Source of the DNA: Solirubrobacterales bacterium
GTDB taxonomy: Bacteria > Actinomycetota > Thermoleophilia > Solirubrobacterales > 70-9
Direction: 5' to 3'
Assembly: GCA_036280745.1 (NCBI GenBank)
Contig: DASUQC010000026.1
Span: forward strand, 209 to 64,208
Length of the DNA: 64,000 bases
In this document: positions 1-7,220 of the stretch, one piece after another
Layout: the number at the start of each line of letters is the position of its first letter
How positions within the stretch are numbered: the stretch's first letter is position 1
The notes under the pieces: model-generated
Told to the model about the DNA's origin: nothing
Database searches by the model: none
Seen by the model: the letters and a program-made list of their open reading frames with translations, nothing else
Position numbers and translations under genes: made by a program

Positions 1-2179
1 GTTGACCAGAAACCGCTGGTAGCAGATCGGTGGCACACGCCCGTAGGTGCGGAATTGCCGATGGTCCTACCTTTCCTTGGGCCGCCGCCAAGAGCAACTC
101 CGGCACAACAATTCGGCGCTGATCGAGCGGCATTCTGGTAACCAGGTGACTAACCGTGCGCTCGCAGTCAGACCACTGCCAGCCCCACCAAGACTCATGC
201 GGACGTAGCCAACGCAGCAAGGACGCAACCAAGAGGGGATCGTAGTAGGAGCGGAACACCGCCGAAAGCTCAAAGACTCGATATTCCGGAGAGTCAGCAG
301 GCCGAATGGCCCGCGCCTGCTCCATGGCAGCTCCGACGGCCGCGAACGTCGCCCGCGCGGAAAGCGCCTCGCCGAATATCGCATTGGGCGTTAGGCGGTC
401 TTTATCTCGCGCACCCCAGAAGAGAGGAGGCCGTTTGCTTCCGCTGCCGCCCCCGCAAAGGCTCAATCTCTTTTCCCAGAAGGGGATAACGCTCTTCTCC
501 AGTTCTGAGTCGTCCAGCTCTTCCAACAACGCCAGCTCGTCACGCAAGGGAGAGCGGTCGGGAAGAAGCGTCTTCCATGCGCAAAACAGACGCCTCTGTC
601 CGTCCTGCTCATACCCATAGCCGTTGGTTAGGCCCTTCCACTCCCGCTCGGTTGCAGGGCGAGAGTGCATAACGAGGCCTTGGAGCGCAAAATCGGGGTC
701 TTCCTTCGCAGTCTGCACCCCCATAAGACCGCGCTGAAGCAGGACCCCAGTCACGGTACCGAGACAGAAGACAAGAACCCGCTCCGCATCCCTCACCTTC
801 TCCTTGACTTCGGCTGAAAGCCCATCCTCGTCGACAGGAAAGGGAAGGGCTTTAGCGCATCGGGGCGCGAGCGTGTGCCGCACTTTCCCCCAGAAGCTTT
901 TCCATCCTTTGAATTCAAGCTCGTGTTGGGGAACGAGGACAATGTCAGGATCGGAATCCAGGCCTTCGTCGTGGAGCGATTTCACGCGCTTAAGAAAGCC
1001 TTTCGACAGCTCGGCATGCGTAAGCATTCGCTCAATCCGAACTGCGATCGGCATTGAGGGCCGATGAAAGCCGATTGCGGGATGCGGGTGAGCCTCTACT
1101 CGCACCGCCTGTTTCGCGTCAGCAATTTCCCAATACTCCTTGTTGTCTAGAGCCTTGGCGACGGACGGGGTGGTCAGTCGTAGCTGTGAAGGGAGCATCT
1201 CGTCCAAGGTCCGCGGGCTGATTGGACAAATTCGGGCCTTGTCAGCAGACCGACAGAGGTCGCACGTCGTGTCGTAGAACCCTTCCTCGACAATGGGCAC
1301 TTCTCCCTGCAGGGGCGACCAGACGTCGATGGTCTCTGGCAAGGGGCTTGATGATTTTCGGATCATTACTTGAAGGCTCACCTGCTTCAGGCTTGGGCGC
1401 TTCCCCTCGAGGGCGGAAAACAGACGATCCAGAACGGCTCCAGTTGAGCTGATCGACAGAAGTGCGAGCACATTGCCCTCTGGGCTTGCCGCGAAATTGA
1501 TGGCGGAGTCGACATCTGCGGAGGTACGCGGATATTGATCTAGGACCGCCACAGGATTTGGCGTCAGACCGGCCCTTTCCATGTTGCGGATAGAGGCCAG
1601 GACGACGGGGTTGAGAACCCCCGTGTCAATTACAAATCCCATTCGGTCTACGAGAGACCGGTTCAGCCAGGACGCAAGCACTTCAGCGTCGCGCGGCTCG
1701 CGGATGGCATCAGCAAGACGAATGTACTCTCCGGCATGCTCCCCCGAGGGCAAGAGATAGTGGTAGGTCTTGGGGCGCCAGATCGCTTCACTCCACTCCA
1801 GAAGGGCCTGTAACTCGACTAAGCGGGCTTGGAGAAGGAGACGGGTGCGATCCCCTTTTGCTATCTCCGAGCCGTGCAGCAAGGTGAGGTCGGGCTCTTT
1901 CCCTACTGGCTGCTCCAGAAGGGTGATGCTCTGCTTCAAACCCCAACGCTCAAAGAGGCGCCGAGCCTCCTCGATGAATTCGTCGCGATTTTTCCCCGAG
2001 AGATCGGGCCGAATCACCATTGGGATGTATGGCGACCGGATCGCCGCAGAATCTACGCCTCGCAAGACCTCAAGATCCGCGGATCTATCGAGGTCCACAA
2101 GCACTACGGCATCACCCTTGGGCTCTCCGTGAACTCGCGTTCCAGATCCCCGGATTGAGACGTACGCGTCGCGGTTCAC
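1..2179 (-). CDS. Large hypothetical protein with two tandem phosphoribosyltransferase (PRTase)-like regions. It is 3'-truncated by the window edge (at least 726 aa) and absent from the supplied ORF track.
   Basis: Manual reverse-complement translation gives an uninterrupted frame from GTG at 2179 (in-frame stop at 2192-2194 just upstream) to position 1. It begins MNRDAYVSIRGSGTRVHGEPKGDAVVLVDL and ends, still open, at ...ATDLLPAVSGQ. Reverse stop triplets (tta/cta/tca) that I spot-checked fall only in the other two frames. There are two PRPP-loop-like signatures: NVLALLSISSTGAVL (1430-1471) and RVLVFCLGTVTGVLL (737-778). A Cys cluster TTCDLCRSADKARICP is also present. The start lies 25 nt downstream of the stop of the co-oriented gene at 2205-3155. 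Confidence 0.7.
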   Translation of the reverse strand, partial: MNRDAYVSIRGSGTRVHGEPKGDAVVLVDLDRSADLEVLRGVDSAAIRSPYIPMVIRPDLSGKNRDEFIEEARRLFERWGLKQSITLLEQPVGKEPDLTLLHGSEIAKGDRTRLLLQARLVELQALLEWSEAIWRPKTYHYLLPSGEHAGEYIRLADAIREPRDAEVLASWLNRSLVDRMGFVIDTGVLNPVVLASIRNMERAGLTPNPVAVLDQYPRTSADVDSAINFAASPEGNVLALLSISSTGAVLDRLFSALEGKRPSLKQVSLQVMIRKSSSPLPETIDVWSPLQGEVPIVEEGFYDTTCDLCRSADKARICPISPRTLDEMLPSQLRLTTPSVAKALDNKEYWEIADAKQAVRVEAHPHPAIGFHRPSMPIAVRIERMLTHAELSKGFLKRVKSLHDEGLDSDPDIVLVPQHELEFKGWKSFWGKVRHTLAPRCAKALPFPVDEDGLSAEVKEKVRDAERVLVFCLGTVTGVLLQRGLMGVQTAKEDPDFALQGLVMHSRPATEREWKGLTNGYGYEQDGQRRLFCAWKTLLPDRSPLRDELALLEELDDSELEKSVIPFWEKRLSLCGGGSGSKRPPLFWGARDKDRLTPNAIFGEALSARATFAAVGAAMEQARAIRPADSPEYRVFELSAVFRSYYDPLLVASLLRWLRPHESWWGWQWSDCERTVSHLVTRMPLDQRRIVVPELLLAAAQGKVGPSAIPHLRACATDLLPAVSGQ

Positions 2180-2204: not shown

Positions 2205-3155
2205 TCAGACAGGAAGCGTAACGACTACCAGCGTACCTTCAACCTCCGCTGCTCTCGAAACCTCGGGTTTACCGTCGCCGGCACCCCGATGGCAGCGATA
2301 CTCGCCGCTGGCGATAAGCATCGCTGCGGACTGGGTCTCTTCAACGATCTCGTAGCATTTCGACAGGCCTATGCCGCGAGCGCGACCCCAGCCGGGAAGA
2401 TCGCCTGAGAGAAGATCCTCAAAAAGTTTCTTCTCAGAAGGAGCACTATCACCGAGCTTGGCCCTTAGAGTCGACTCAATTCCAGGGCCAGTATCGGAGA
2501 TACAAACAGAGAAAAAGCGACGGGCGTCTTTTTTCCAAAGCCTTATCCAAACCTGGGACTTGAGTGGAGCCCTATCGTCTAAGACAGCGTGCTCACGGAT
2601 GTTTCCAACAAGCTCACTCACAAAGAAGCCCGCTCGCTCCACAGCTCGCTGGACATGCTGCGCCCCCTCATCTTCTAGTCGCCTGAAGAGCCAGCGGCGA
2701 ATCAGCGAGCTGATACCCGAGTTGCCAGCGACGGGAAAGGTGAGATGTGGATCGTTGAACGTCGCGTATTCAGGTCCAGAAAGGCCTTCAGGACGCTCTT
2801 CATCGGGTGACGAGAAAAGAGCATTGGAGAAGCGGCGGGAGCCCGGGGTCCAGGTACGAGTCCACTCAGTTGACCGCAGACTTTTTGGCTCAACTGAGTG
2901 GGTTGCCCGGCTGATCGCAGATGCGAGACCTAAGCTTGGGAATGCGTCGGCCAGGTTGCCGCTGACGGTCACCCGGAGCGACCGCCTATCGGCAAGAAAG
3001 AACCAATGCAGGAGTCCGATCGCCATTGGTTCGAAAGCCGGCGGACTTTTGAGCTCAATGACGACATCGTCATCTGGCGCGACGAGATCCGACAGACTCC
3101 CGAAGGCGTCCTCAAGGCGTTCCTCGTTTAGTTCATCTATCGAAAACGTCGTCAT
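2205..3155 (-). CDS. GHKL-superfamily (HATPase_c, RsbW/SpoIIAB/histidine-kinase-like) ATPase or protein-kinase-like protein with an uncharacterised N-terminal domain, possibly STAS-like.
   Basis: The C-terminal half carries Bergerat-fold boxes: an N-box (ELVGNIREHA), a G1 box (ISDTGPGI) and a G2 box (GRARGIGLSKC). I place the start at the internal ATG at 3153-3155 (MTTFSIDELNEERLED). The 132 codons upstream in the track ORF 2205..3551 are low-complexity Arg/Ser/Pro text. Confidence 0.7.
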   Translation of the reverse strand: MTTFSIDELNEERLEDAFGSLSDLVAPDDDVVIELKSPPAFEPMAIGLLHWFFLADRRSLRVTVSGNLADAFPSLGLASAISRATHSVEPKSLRSTEWTRTWTPGSRRFSNALFSSPDEERPEGLSGPEYATFNDPHLTFPVAGNSGISSLIRRWLFRRLEDEGAQHVQRAVERAGFFVSELVGNIREHAVLDDRAPLKSQVWIRLWKKDARRFFSVCISDTGPGIESTLRAKLGDSAPSEKKLFEDLLSGDLPGWGRARGIGLSKCYEIVEETQSAAMLIASGEYRCHRGAGDGKPEVSRAAEVEGTLVVVTLPV

Positions 3156-3310
3156 AGGGCAGGCCTGTCGCCACGATCTCCGTTGGCTCCAAAATGGGAA
3201 AAACAGATTAATGTAGATGAGGCACCGGACGTAGTTTTCTCTCCCTCTGACTGCGCTATCTGCGACATCGCGCGCCTCCAGCCTCCTATTTGCTTCGGCT
3301 TCGCTGCTAA

Positions 3311-3326
3311 TGTTCTTTAAAGAACA
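3311..3326. promoter_or_regulatory. 16-bp perfect palindrome TGTTCTTTAAAGAACA in the divergent intergenic region; candidate operator.
   Basis: The sequence is exactly self-complementary. It is AT-rich and lies 9 nt upstream of the TTG at 3335, inside the 179-bp gap between the divergent genes at 2205-3155 (-) and 3335-4009 (+). Confidence 0.4.
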
Positions 3327-3334
3327 TCTCGATT

Positions 3335-4009
3335 TTGGAAGAGGCGTCGGACGTTGCGATGAACCAGGCAGAGAGCAAGACCGCAGTGGCGTCGACCGTT
3401 GCAGCCGAGCTGCGCGGGATCCGTGGGGCCGACCAAGCGGACTGGTTCCAAGGCCAGCTCGAGGTGGGCGTTGGTGAGCGTGGGCGCAAAGATGCTTTGA
3501 AGCAGCGAAAAGCAAAGTCTCCTTGGGACGCGAAGCGTGGTCGAAAGCCATCGGAGGGGGAGGATCGAGAAGATCTCGGCTCCGCTGACGGCTGGCTCTG
3601 GGACACCGTAGAAGTCGATCCGTTCAAGCTCGACCTCCAGCAGGCGATGGTCCTGCTACCAGGGGTTCAGGATCCGGAGAGCGTCCTTTCCCACCTCAGG
3701 TCGACTATCGGCGTTGTCAAGGTGTACGAGTCGTACGGCGGAGTCGGCGGCAGTTTGATCGTCGCCCACCTCGTCTACATGGGAGCCCAGCGACGGGGGC
3801 AGCTAGATGCTCGCCTTCGTGAGTTGCAGATGCCGTTCGAGTGGCTGGAGTTGCGTTCCGTAAGTCCCTCGCGCCCGTTTGAGGGCAGACCCGCCGCAGC
3901 GACCTGGGAAGCCTTGGCACAGCAGTTCGCCGAACTTGAGGGGCTCAAGCTGGAGCGAGTCAGCGTCAAGACGCCGCCCTGGCAGGAACATGCTTCGAAA
4001 CCAGGATGA
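3335..4009 (+). CDS. Hypothetical protein, an orphan transcribed divergently from the GHKL/PRTase-like operon.
   Basis: This is a 224-codon ORF (TTG at 3335, alternative ATG at 3359) with protein-like composition and codon pattern (for example VKVYESYGGVGGSLIVAHLVYMG and ATWEALAQQFAELEGLKLERV). No motif was recognised. It conflicts with the antisense ORF 3775..4296, which looks less protein-like. Confidence 0.45.
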   Translation: MEEASDVAMNQAESKTAVASTVAAELRGIRGADQADWFQGQLEVGVGERGRKDALKQRKAKSPWDAKRGRKPSEGEDREDLGSADGWLWDTVEVDPFKLDLQQAMVLLPGVQDPESVLSHLRSTIGVVKVYESYGGVGGSLIVAHLVYMGAQRRGQLDARLRELQMPFEWLELRSVSPSRPFEGRPAAATWEALAQQFAELEGLKLERVSVKTPPWQEHASKPG

Positions 4010-4339
4010 GGGTCACCTAGGTATCGAACCAAGGAAACGATTGCGATAGGAGGGTTGGTTTCGCTCGGCGATGACACAGGCCGGAGGTCCACGGACGAGC
4101 GCGGAGACCATGAGTAGGGGATCTGGACACGCTCACCGAAAACGACGACGTTCTCGGTTCCTGGAAGGGCAGCACTCCGCACCCTGATGATCTTGGGGCT
4201 CGCGGATCGGATCGCAGTCGATCGCCAAGCGCGGCATGCAGCATGATCATCAGCGATCAGCTCTTCCGGCTCGGTCAAAGCCGAACTGGCTGGCATTGGA
4301 GAATTTGATTGGCTCCGCTTGCGGAAATAGCCAGCCTCC

Positions 4340-4479: not shown

Positions 4480-4575
4480 TGCGCCCGACGGGAGTCGAAC
4501 CCGCGACCTTCGGCTTGAAAGACCGACGCTCTTTGGGCCCCCGAAAGGACCCGTTGACCACTGAGCTACGGGCGC
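4480..4575 (-). tRNA. Atypical 96-nt tRNA-like gene. The anticodon loop CUUUCAA gives UUC, Glu by anticodon. The D-loop carries about 20 extra nt, so the isotype is uncertain.
   Basis: The reverse complement reads GCGCCCG TA GCTC [31-nt loop AGTGGTCAACGGGTCCTTTCGGGGGCCCAAA] GAGC G TCGGT CTTTCAA GCCGA AGGTC GCGGG TTCGACT CCCGT CGGGCGC A. It has a perfect 7-bp acceptor stem, a canonical T-arm with GTTCGA, and 5-bp anticodon and T stems. No CCA is encoded. Confidence 0.6.
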
Positions 4576-5720: not shown

Positions 5721-7220
5721 TCAGCTCTCGCCAGCGATCTCGCGCATCGCCGGATAGATGATCACGTCGCGCAGCGTCTTCGCCCCGGTCATGATCATCA
5801 GCAGCCGGTCGATCCCCAGCCCGCACCCGCTCGCCGGCGGCATCCCGTATTCGAGCGCGCGCACGAACTCTTCGTCGTGGGGATGCGGATCGGCCTCCGC
5901 CCCCGTTTCCTGGCGTTCGCGCTGCTTGACGAAGCGCACCTTCTGCTCGACCGGGTCGTTGAGGTCGGTCCCGCCGCCGACGATCTCCATCCCGGCGACG
6001 ATCCCGTCGAAGGCCTCGCAGATCCGCGGGCTCTCCTCGTGCACCTTGACCAGCGGCCAGATGTCGATCGGCAGGTCGATGATGTAGGTCGGCTGGATCA
6101 GCTTCGGCTCGACCAGCTTCCCCTGCAGCGTGTCCACCACCCCGGCCCAGTCGTCGTTCTCGTCGACGTCGTCGCCGGCCGCCTCCGCCAGTTCGTCCCG
6201 GCTCGCCTCGTAGATGTCGAGCCCGGTCTCGCGCAGCAGCTCGTCGCGCAGACGCACCCGCGGCCAGGGCGCCGCGAAGTCGATCTCGACCCCGTCGCGC
6301 TCGACCACCGTCGTCCCCATCGTCTTCTCGACCACGCTCGCGACCAGCGTCTCGACGAAGCGCATCACGCCTTCGTAGTCGGCCCCGCCGACGAACATCT
6401 CCAGCATCGTGAACTCGGGGTTGTGCTGGGGCGACATCCCCTCGTTGCGGAAGAACTTGCCGAACTCGTAGACGTCCTCAAAGCCGCCGACGATCGCCCG
6501 CTTCAGGTACAGCTCGGTCGCCGTGCGCAGGAAGAGGTCGCGGTCGAGCGCGTTGTGGTGGGTGACGAACGGCCGCGCCGCCGCCCCCCCAGTGAGCCGC
6601 TGCAGGACCGGCGTTTCCAGCTCCACCCACCCCCGCGAGTTCATGTGGTTGCGGACCTCCCAGAGCAGCTTCGCCCGCTTCTTGAAGATCTCGCGCGAGT
6701 CCGCGTTCGCCATCAGGTCGAGTTCGCGCTGGCGGTAGCGCGTGTCGGGGTCGGAGATGCCGTGGAAGAGGTCGGGCGGATCTTTGAGAGCCTTGGCCAG
6801 CAGGAAGCACTCGCGCACGCCGATCGCCAGCTGCCCGCGCTTGGTCACGTGCAGCGGCCCGACAATCCCGACCAGGTCGCCGATGTCGAGCTCCTCGACC
6901 CGGTCGAACGCCTCGTCGCCGAGCACGTCGCGCCGCGCGTAGGCCTGGATCGACCCGGTCACGTCGCGGACGTCGAGGAAGGCGGTCTTGCCGTGCCCGC
7001 GCTTGCCGACGATCCGGCCCATCACCCGGTAGGTGAACTCCCCGTGCTCGCCCTCGCCGAGCGCGGCCGGGTCGTGCGCGGCCTCGATCTCCTCGACGTG
7101 GTCGCGCTCTTCGAAGGAGTGCGGGTAGGGATCGACGCCGGCCTCGCGCAGCCGCTCGACCTTCGCCCTGCGTTGCTCCTCGGTAGAGCCGGCCGTCTCG
7201 GCCGCGCGGCTATCGCTCAT
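5721..7220 (-). CDS. lysS: Lysine--tRNA ligase (class II)
   Basis: 499 aa with an OB-fold N-domain (GRIVGKRGHGKTAFLDVRD) and class II motifs (FFRNEGMSPQHNPEFTMLE, GCGLGIDRLLM). Confidence 0.95.
   Translation of the reverse strand: MSDSRAAETAGSTEEQRRAKVERLREAGVDPYPHSFEERDHVEEIEAAHDPAALGEGEHGEFTYRVMGRIVGKRGHGKTAFLDVRDVTGSIQAYARRDVLGDEAFDRVEELDIGDLVGIVGPLHVTKRGQLAIGVRECFLLAKALKDPPDLFHGISDPDTRYRQRELDLMANADSREIFKKRAKLLWEVRNHMNSRGWVELETPVLQRLTGGAAARPFVTHHNALDRDLFLRTATELYLKRAIVGGFEDVYEFGKFFRNEGMSPQHNPEFTMLEMFVGGADYEGVMRFVETLVASVVEKTMGTTVVERDGVEIDFAAPWPRVRLRDELLRETGLDIYEASRDELAEAAGDDVDENDDWAGVVDTLQGKLVEPKLIQPTYIIDLPIDIWPLVKVHEESPRICEAFDGIVAGMEIVGGGTDLNDPVEQKVRFVKQRERQETGAEADPHPHDEEFVRALEYGMPPASGCGLGIDRLLMIMTGAKTLRDVIIYPAMREIAGES

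Follow-up and report, generated by a model that had tools for sequence, protein, structure and literature searches.

A large protein with two degenerate phosphoribosyltransferase-like modules and its GHKL-type partner in a genomic island of a Solirubrobacterales bacterium

Phosphoribosyltransferase (PRTase) and GHKL folds are well known, as are PRTase-derived proteins in bacterial conflict systems. Here we describe a gene pair that joins the two folds, found in a 64,000-nucleotide stretch of DNA from a Solirubrobacterales bacterium (GenBank assembly GCA_036280745.1, contig DASUQC010000026.1, positions 209 to 64,208), referred to below as the window. The pair consists of a large gene encoding two PRTase-like modules in tandem (1..2179, minus strand) and, upstream of it, a gene encoding a GHKL/HATPase_c protein (2205..3155, minus strand).

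In type I PRTases, two adjacent acidic residues hold Mg-phosphoribosyl pyrophosphate (Mg-PRPP) and are essential, and the [ST]-G part of the PRPP loop holds the 5'-phosphate. The fold of these enzymes (PyrE/orotate phosphoribosyltransferase [OPRTase] 1opr, 1lh0, 4paw and 5hkl; adenine and hypoxanthine-guanine phosphoribosyltransferases, APRT and HGPRT) is common to both modules of the large protein, which keep the strand, the [ST]-G loop and the helix at the PRPP-loop position, and module 1 also retains the N-terminal 'H-x-L-x-S-G-x-H' hood segment of OPRTase 4paw. The large protein differs from type I PRTases in lacking both the acidic pair and a match to PF00156, in having tandem copies of the fold within 749 aa along with extra N- and C-terminal domains, and in being paired with a GHKL protein outside pyrimidine and purine operons. 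PRPP synthetase also has two PRTase-type domains in one chain and resembles the large protein in its tandem folds; its size and flanking domains, however, are different, no Pribosyltran_N or Pribosyl_synth match was found here, and PRPP synthetase was not among the top-50 fold matches. In PurR and PyrR the PRTase fold serves chiefly for phosphoribosyl-ligand binding and not for biosynthesis; they are the model for a sensor reading of the large protein, although both keep the PRPP motif and carry, or act via, nucleic-acid binding, for which no domain was detected in the large protein.

To our knowledge, PRTase-fold proteins in bacterial conflict have been described only as active toxins (ShosT, RqlI and PRTase-CE), of which ShosT is the one PRTase-domain defence toxin we know to have been studied biochemically. 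The locus resembles ShosT/RqlI in that a PRTase-fold protein is one half of a two-gene unit with links to phage defence (PMC11961720). In ShosT the PRPP loop is canonical, with essential D331/D332, and there are also a pyrophosphatase domain and a DprA-like antitoxin (ShosA), whereas the large protein is without the acidic pair, has a GHKL partner in place of a DprA-like one and gave no match to the PADLOC ShosT models at E<=1. PRTase-CE (PF24390) together with an ORC-CDC6-like protein is a further likeness, since a PRTase-derived domain is likewise combined there with an ATPase in defence islands; at one of our loci (L036) such a pair is 5 kb away from the family member. Its partner ATPase belongs to another class, and no relation was found by Pfam scan or by comparing the profiles of both modules with the PRTase-CE protein of that locus. 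The original prediction (made from the letters of the window) had proposed a comparison of the loops with ComF/ShosT-like families; no sequence relation to ShosT (PADLOC) or to ComF-like families was detected, nor to PRTase-CE. The partner shares HATPase_c and the N, G1 and G2 boxes with histidine kinase CA domains and with GHKL kinases of the SpoIIAB-RsbW type, and differs from them by its unique N-terminal ~170 aa and by the absence of a detectable HisKA/DHp, STAS or receiver domain. A system combining GHKL and PRTase proteins was sought in the literature, where only unrelated mentions came up, and the tandem arrangement, the family-wide double loss of the acidic pair and the strict GHKL pairing were not found in the libraries or literature searched.

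The large gene and its PRTase-like modules

Reverse-complement translation from GTG 2179 to the window edge (2179..1, minus strand) gave 726 sense codons and no stops. The first upstream stop in this frame is a TAA 15 nt before the GTG, and GTG 2179 is therefore the first possible start. The other five frames of window 1-2179 have 15-27 stops each and no open stretch longer than 127 codons, and at this base composition 726 open codons would arise with a probability of 1.8e-11. The uninterrupted frame had been predicted, together with its absence from a mechanical list of open reading frames (ORFs) showing short ORFs only across 67-2355, and both held; the gene is absent from the list because ORFs that run off the source edge are omitted by rule. 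The frame is real, and its absence from the list is a tool artefact. An NCBI protein from a Solirubrobacterales metagenome-assembled genome (P0001) is 100% identical to the window protein and adds 23 C-terminal residues, QRAAIKLGLHIAPVIDEDGLKAD, which are absent from the window. The full-length protein is thus ~749 aa, of which 726 codons lie in the window and the last 23, with the stop, beyond its start. The NCBI annotation of P0001 begins at an internal Met54, 53 codons later than GTG 2179. Since homologues align from residue ~3 (AYVSIR), and D29 is 95% conserved, GTG 2179 appears the better start, and the NCBI start is probably 53 codons too short.

The 726 residues were modelled with AlphaFold2 at a mean predicted local distance difference test score (pLDDT) of 83.4. 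The N-terminal alpha/beta domain (residues 1-104; 1868..2179, minus strand) was modelled with pLDDT 74-95 and includes D29 and the 97% conserved R57. The OPRTase-like module 1 (residues 105-295; 1295..1867, minus strand), delimited by OPRTase/HGPRT matches and conservation, contains the hood motif YHYxLPSGxH (139-148), D185 after the first core strand, Y216-P217 and a degenerate PRPP loop, VLALLSISSTGAV (residues 237-249; 1433..1471, minus strand), placed by alignment to HGPRT and OPRTase loops. A connector (residues 296-400; 980..1294, minus strand), which bears C306xxC309 (window 1253-1264) and, at residues 313-328, a loop modelled with low confidence (pLDDT <50), leads to module 2 (residues 401-560; 500..979, minus strand), with its own degenerate PRPP loop, VLVFCLGTVTGVL (residues 468-480; 740..778, minus strand), placed by column counts and weak register with the loop of module 1. 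The remainder is a mainly helical C-terminal domain (residues 561-726 and beyond; 2..499, minus strand), recognised from secondary structure and conservation, with the motifs RSYYD (643-647) and RW..PHE..WWG (656-666; its Trp-rich part at window 182-202), E694 and K703; it showed no similarity to a known fold and no PDB or Pfam match. The motifs quoted in the original prediction were all located in the protein, namely VIDTGVLNPVVLASI at residues 183-197, NVLALLSISSTGAVL at 236-250 and, 232 residues later where ~230 had been given, RVLVFCLGTVTGVLL at 466-480; the Trp-rich C-terminal part was likewise found, as HESWWGWQWSDCE at residues 661-673. A CxxC...C cluster had also been placed between the modules, and C306xxC309...C318 is indeed present; only C306 and C309 are conserved (99%), however, and C318 is not, so that a complete zinc ribbon is not supported.

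When the full-length model was compared with the PDB by Foldseek, the top matches were mainly type I PRTases (OPRTase 1lh0/1opr, HGPRT; probability ~1.0, E ~1e-3 for a long query), and nothing else matched with high probability. In a search of BFVD with the same model only PRTases were credible, and no viral protein with the architecture of the large protein was found there. Residues 296-600 modelled alone gave a pLDDT of 75. With module 2 alone, the top 50 PDB matches were all OPRTase, APRT or HGPRT (best E 4.6e-6, probability 1.0; template modelling scores 0.45-0.59, normalised to target), from which it follows that module 2 has the PRTase fold. Module 1 was approached with a profile of 34 sequences (residues 105-295) searched against PDB sequences, which matched OPRTase 4paw at E 0.009 over HY.LPSG.H (segment 'HyrLPSGeHaetFvrladaireprdaevlA') and HGPRT at E 1.2, with 'kvlallSvsssGrlrdrl...levlvdr' on 'HVLIMEDIADTGRTMKLL...VCVLVDK'; a second, collinear segment aligned with 'ILVCEDIITTG' of 4paw. 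The stretch 'vlallSvsssG' of module 1 thereby comes to lie on two PRPP loops, 'VLIMEDIADTG' and 'ILVCEDIITTG'. In a comparison of the two modules by hhalign the loops fell in register, but weakly, at a pairwise E of 0.012 and a probability of 3.7%, which is at most suggestive of an internal duplication. The prediction of two PRTase-like modules was thus borne out by AlphaFold and Foldseek for the full length and for module 2, and by the profile for module 1; the structure and profile check, run on the 726 residues, yielded type I PRTases as the only credible fold matches. No canonical PRTase gene that could serve as a reference turned up when the collected DNA was searched with a regular expression.

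The protein family and the missing acidic pair

A word-indexed search returned 19 close relatives of the window protein, none with a Pfam domain, while an exhaustive profile search, with clusters formed at 50% identity, returned 771 of them when the threshold was E<=1e-3 and 312 when it was E<=1e-30. Members were seen in Actinomycetota and in at least one Burkholderiales genome. No library model fits the large-protein family: none was found in Pfam, NCBIfam, PADLOC or PHROGs, the sole PHROG match being a generic HATPase one for the partner; a Pfam scan of the window large protein gave no match at E<=1, and a scan of 34 module 1 segments gave none at E<=10. Ten over-long members (861-939 aa) were scanned with Pfam for fused effector domains, and none was found at E<=0.01. 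A search of the PDB with the single window sequence returned noise only.

Conservation was counted over 139 diverse full-length representatives with 24-44% identity to the window protein. Residues conserved at >=90% are D29, R57, E122, W134, H140, L143, P144, G146, H148, W171, D185, Y216, P217, S242, V243, G247, W287, C306, C309, R373, G474, G478, H505, P540, P544, E548, R571, G603, R623, S644, Y645, D647, R656, W657, E662, W665, G666, E694 and K703. Among them E122, H140, H148, D185, Y216, S242, G247, H505, E548, R571, R656, E694 and K703 are the invariant polar residues.

The loop consensus over these representatives is [LVI]-S(98%)-V(90%)-[SN]-S-[ST]-G(100%) in module 1 and [ATSC]-[LV]-G(96%)-x-V-[TS]-G(99%)-x-[TS] in module 2, so that both modules keep the [ST]-G phosphate-binding turn. 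The HGPRT and OPRTase alignments place L241-S242 at the position of the PRTase acidic pair. Positions 241/242 are occupied by L/V/I and then S (98%), and the corresponding positions 472/473 of module 2 by A/T/S/C and then L/V. The acidic pair, whose absence from the window protein had been predicted, is missing from both modules in all 139 representatives. Of the PRPP-loop assignments made in that prediction, the loops at 237-249 and 468-480 held up, whereas the VIDTG segment does not form another such loop: its place is after the first core strand of module 1, where PRTases have their pyrophosphate loop, and its D185 is 98% conserved. The loss is family-wide, and the loop and the invariant polar residues are retained; the absence of the pair is an ancestral, selected trait and not decay.

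In ShosT, the substitution D331A/D332A in the acidic pair abolishes toxicity (PMC11961720). Since the pair is needed there and is absent here, canonical Mg-PRPP chemistry is unlikely in the large protein by analogy. Binding of a phosphorylated ligand, on the other hand, is plausible.

The GHKL partner and the genomic settings of the pair

The stop of the partner gene lies 25 nt upstream of GTG 2179. The partner is a protein of 316 aa from Met at 3155 (2205..3155, minus strand), as defined by its HATPase_c match and the starts of its homologues; a 448-aa reading of the same ORF (2205-3551) was rejected as over-extended by 132 codons, the homologues starting at its Met133 (window 3155). It matches Pfam HATPase_c with 31.1 bits (cutoff 26.4) and has the motifs of the Bergerat ATP-binding fold, with an N box (N185..H189-A190), a G1 box (D221-x-G-x-G) and a G2 box (R260-G-x-G-L). 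In 30 partners N185, D221, G223, G225, R260, G263 and L264 are 100% conserved, as are W102 and W155, and an N-P-H motif is mostly conserved; these invariant motifs predict that the partner is competent to bind ATP. The closest PDB sequences were catalytic domains of sensor kinases (AgrC, EL346), at E 0.1-0.4 only. The N-terminal ~170 aa are family-specific, no HisKA/DHp, STAS or receiver domain was detected in the partner, and as to two-component features neither protein of the pair has a HisKA or Response_reg match, while H137 of the partner is 86% conserved in its atypical N-P-H context.

The pairing was followed through 33 loci, gathered by exact-protein look-up and a scan of GTDB species genomes. 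The partner was immediately upstream and co-oriented in 31/33, with gaps mostly of 5-30 nt; the two exceptions are a locus interrupted by the end of its contig and a locus in which 1.9 kb separates the genes. The partner is also retained, with start and stop overlapping and matches of E 1e-42 to 1e-55 over the full length, in P0048 and P0161, which were the most divergent members tested. The partner is obligate and is probably co-translated with the large gene. A third gene conserved family-wide was sought in the neighbourhoods and was not found.

The pair is GC-poorer than its flanks in 25/29 loci, by a mean of 3.6 points (difference -3.6), and disrupted copies of the large gene were observed: one split by a ~3.3-kb insertion (L031, 4178-9937), one truncated after ~250 codons (L033, 7554-8315) and one frameshifted, with the 1.9-kb gap after the partner gene (L012, 5989-7929). 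Gene content was counted at the nine loci for which Pfam annotation had been computed beforehand and whose flanks reached 8 kb or more, and defence or mobile genes lay near the cassette in 8/9, a raw count that was not set against a background rate. The neighbours, toxin-antitoxin pairs among them, were PIN/MazE and DUF4917 (L001); an MmeI-type restriction-modification system, helicase, MZB, PLD, ThiF, Multi_ubiq and transposases (L003); an integrase (L006); a transposase, a serine recombinase and DUF4365 (L007); KwaA/KwaB, DUF4062 and an SMC-like ATPase (L034); PIN, CcdA/PemK, Vsr, PRTase-CE with ORC-CDC6-like, and DCD (L036); DUF499/HEPN, DUF1156 and SNF2 (L039); and five transposases (L040). 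L005 had no defence or mobile genes. The 85 flanking ORFs of the GTDB loci included Type ISP/IIG restriction enzymes, a pPIWI-associated nuclease, AbiEii-like ATPases and a TrwC relaxase, and many housekeeping genes too. The pair forms a self-contained, GC-poor, horizontally moving cassette; the chromosomal sites at which it is found are many and different, and they often lie in islands of defence or mobile genes.

Two of these loci deserve separate description. L034, a metagenomic contig, is a dense defence island in which Kiwa (KwaA/KwaB; 2637-4125, minus strand) lies ~3 kb upstream of the cassette and DUF4062 with a PHP/SMC-like ATPase downstream. At L036, an ORC-CDC6-like ATPase, PRTase-CE (PF24390) and a dUTPase/DCD-like gene (12849-15646, minus strand) lie 3-6 kb from the family member, and by this gene content the island holds two unrelated PRTase-derived cassettes.

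In the window, the cassette segment 1-4479 has 58.7% GC, against 71.0% for the rest. The boundary between the two is marked by a tRNA gene (4480..4575, minus strand; Rfam tRNA, 65.6 bits) with a 25-nt D-loop insertion, whose anticodon loop CUUUCAA identifies it as tRNA-Glu(UUC). The ARAGORN call of tRNA-Pro(ggg) for the same gene was rejected, the anticodon having been taken inside the D-loop insertion. About 1.1 kb past the tRNA, a class II aminoacyl-tRNA synthetase gene of the Asp/Lys/Asn type (5721-7220, minus strand; tRNA-synt_2 and OB anticodon-binding domain) marks the start of the high-GC core genome.

Within the island, an ORF of 216 aa is divergent to the pair (3359..4009, plus strand). 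It occupies the same divergent position in L006 (76% identity, E 4e-110) and L003 (36%, E 2.5e-24), is absent from the other loci and has no Pfam, PHROG or PDB match; as it stands beside the pair in one subclade only, it is possibly a subclade-specific accessory or regulatory gene. The divergent intergenic region holds a perfect 18-bp palindrome, ATGTTCTTTAAAGAACAT (3310..3327), which is identical in L006 despite diverged flanks and is replaced at the aligned position in L003 by a different inverted repeat (TGTCC...GGACA); it looks like a candidate operator. Between the tRNA and the cassette, within an ORF at 3775-4296, lies the C-terminal remnant of a RES-domain toxin gene (~4135-4254, minus strand), matching Pfam RES at E 4.6e-4 over profile positions 98-137 only, which suggests decayed older cargo of the island.

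Proposed function of the pair

The pair may be a conflict or defence cassette whose PRTase-like pockets bind a ligand of the phosphoribosyl type and are coupled to an ATP-dependent action of the partner, a reading to which we give about an even chance. The cassette would be either an anti-phage defence or a toxin-antitoxin-like system. No canonical PRPP transfer would take place in the two pseudo-PRTase pockets; they would bind a phosphoribosyl ligand, be it a nucleotide, PRPP or a molecule of the alarmone type, and the state of the ligand would be coupled to phosphorylation or clamping by the GHKL partner at the expense of ATP, with the output possibly coming from the strongly conserved C-terminal domain or from module 1 itself. 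More tentatively, and with a probability that we put well below even, the pair could represent an undescribed two-gene class of immune or conflict system, in which the disabled pockets sense a metabolite change induced by infection (in PRPP, an alarmone or a phage-modified nucleotide) and the GHKL protein responds by phosphorylating or clamping, leading to growth arrest.

Several observations weigh against a conflict cassette built around such a sensor. The neighbour count given above lacks a background rate. The fold of module 1 rests on a marginal E of 0.009 and on a full-length search in which no aligned query range was reported. Neither the large protein nor the GHKL partner matched a PADLOC-DB v2 family at E<=1, and no effector domain of the large protein was recognised in the library scans. 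The family was not found by tblastn against PLSDB plasmids and INPHARED phages or by a pattern scan of IMG/VR, and many Acidimicrobiales loci lie in housekeeping surroundings with synteny kept among related genomes. Lastly, polar residues so strongly conserved at 25-30% overall identity suit a sensor no better than an enzyme.

This last point is the strength of the main rival, rather unlikely in our estimation, by which the large protein acts as an enzyme or toxin whose nucleotide or phosphoribosyl chemistry is non-canonical, with the GHKL protein as its regulator or antitoxin. H140, H148, D185, Y216 and S242 of module 1 would then form a new active site, with an outcome like that of ShosT/RqlI reached through another mechanism. 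The near-invariant His, Asp, Tyr and Ser residues across the 139 representatives, the retention of the OPRTase hood motif and the position of the two-gene unit in defence islands all fit such an enzyme, and PRTase-domain toxins do exist (PMC11961720). However, the acidic pair that is essential in ShosT and in type I PRTases is missing family-wide from both modules, and there is no Pfam Pribosyltran match.

The Acidimicrobiales loci bear on a third reading, which we regard as improbable, namely a housekeeping module, and not a conflict system, in which a PurR/PyrR-like sensor of phosphoribosyl metabolites controls, or is controlled by, a kinase-like ATPase tuning nucleotide metabolism. At least four different housekeeping settings are found in that order, each common to 2-4 related genomes (for example ABC-F/SurE with aminotransferase/nitrilase, or succinate dehydrogenase), and such stable neighbourhoods in several lineages, the absence of the family from the plasmids and phages searched, and the regulatory use of PRTase folds in PurR and PyrR all speak for it. 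Yet no DNA- or RNA-binding domain was detected and no nucleotide-metabolism genes are consistently nearby; the position of the pair also differs between lineages, its GC content is below that of the flanks in most loci, the window copy sits in a tRNA-adjacent island, defence or mobile neighbours occur in all but one of the annotated contexts, and disrupted copies exist.

It is very improbable that module 2 and the CxxC form a ComFC-like unit that handles nucleic acid, with DNA or RNA bound in place of a small ligand. A CxxC preceding a PRTase-fold domain does resemble the zinc-finger-plus-PRTase layout of ComFC, in which the zinc finger has four Cys, but conservation here is limited to two Cys, the top-50 fold matches of module 2 do not include ComFC, no ComFA-like helicase or competence genes are linked, and the PRPP motif, which ComF-type proteins keep, is degenerate here. 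A chance or decayed non-coding origin of the open frame, which its absence from the ORF list had suggested, is already refuted by the chance probability of 1.8e-11, by hundreds of homologues with invariant residues, by a confident structure model (pLDDT 83) and by the edge rule that accounts for the absence.

The analysis exposed annotation errors, in that edge-truncated ORFs were dropped, the NCBI start of the large gene is probably 53 codons short and a tRNA was mis-typed by ARAGORN. As to biology, two PRTase folds without the acidic pair are under strong selection and strictly tied to an ATP-binding GHKL partner. As an enzyme, if it is one, the large protein would bring new chemistry on the PRTase scaffold. 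If it is an immune sensor, PRTase folds would have been repurposed as sensors instead of toxins; and if the pair serves in defence, a new sensor/partner logic would be gained, and annotation of many high-GC genomes would have a new family to take into account.

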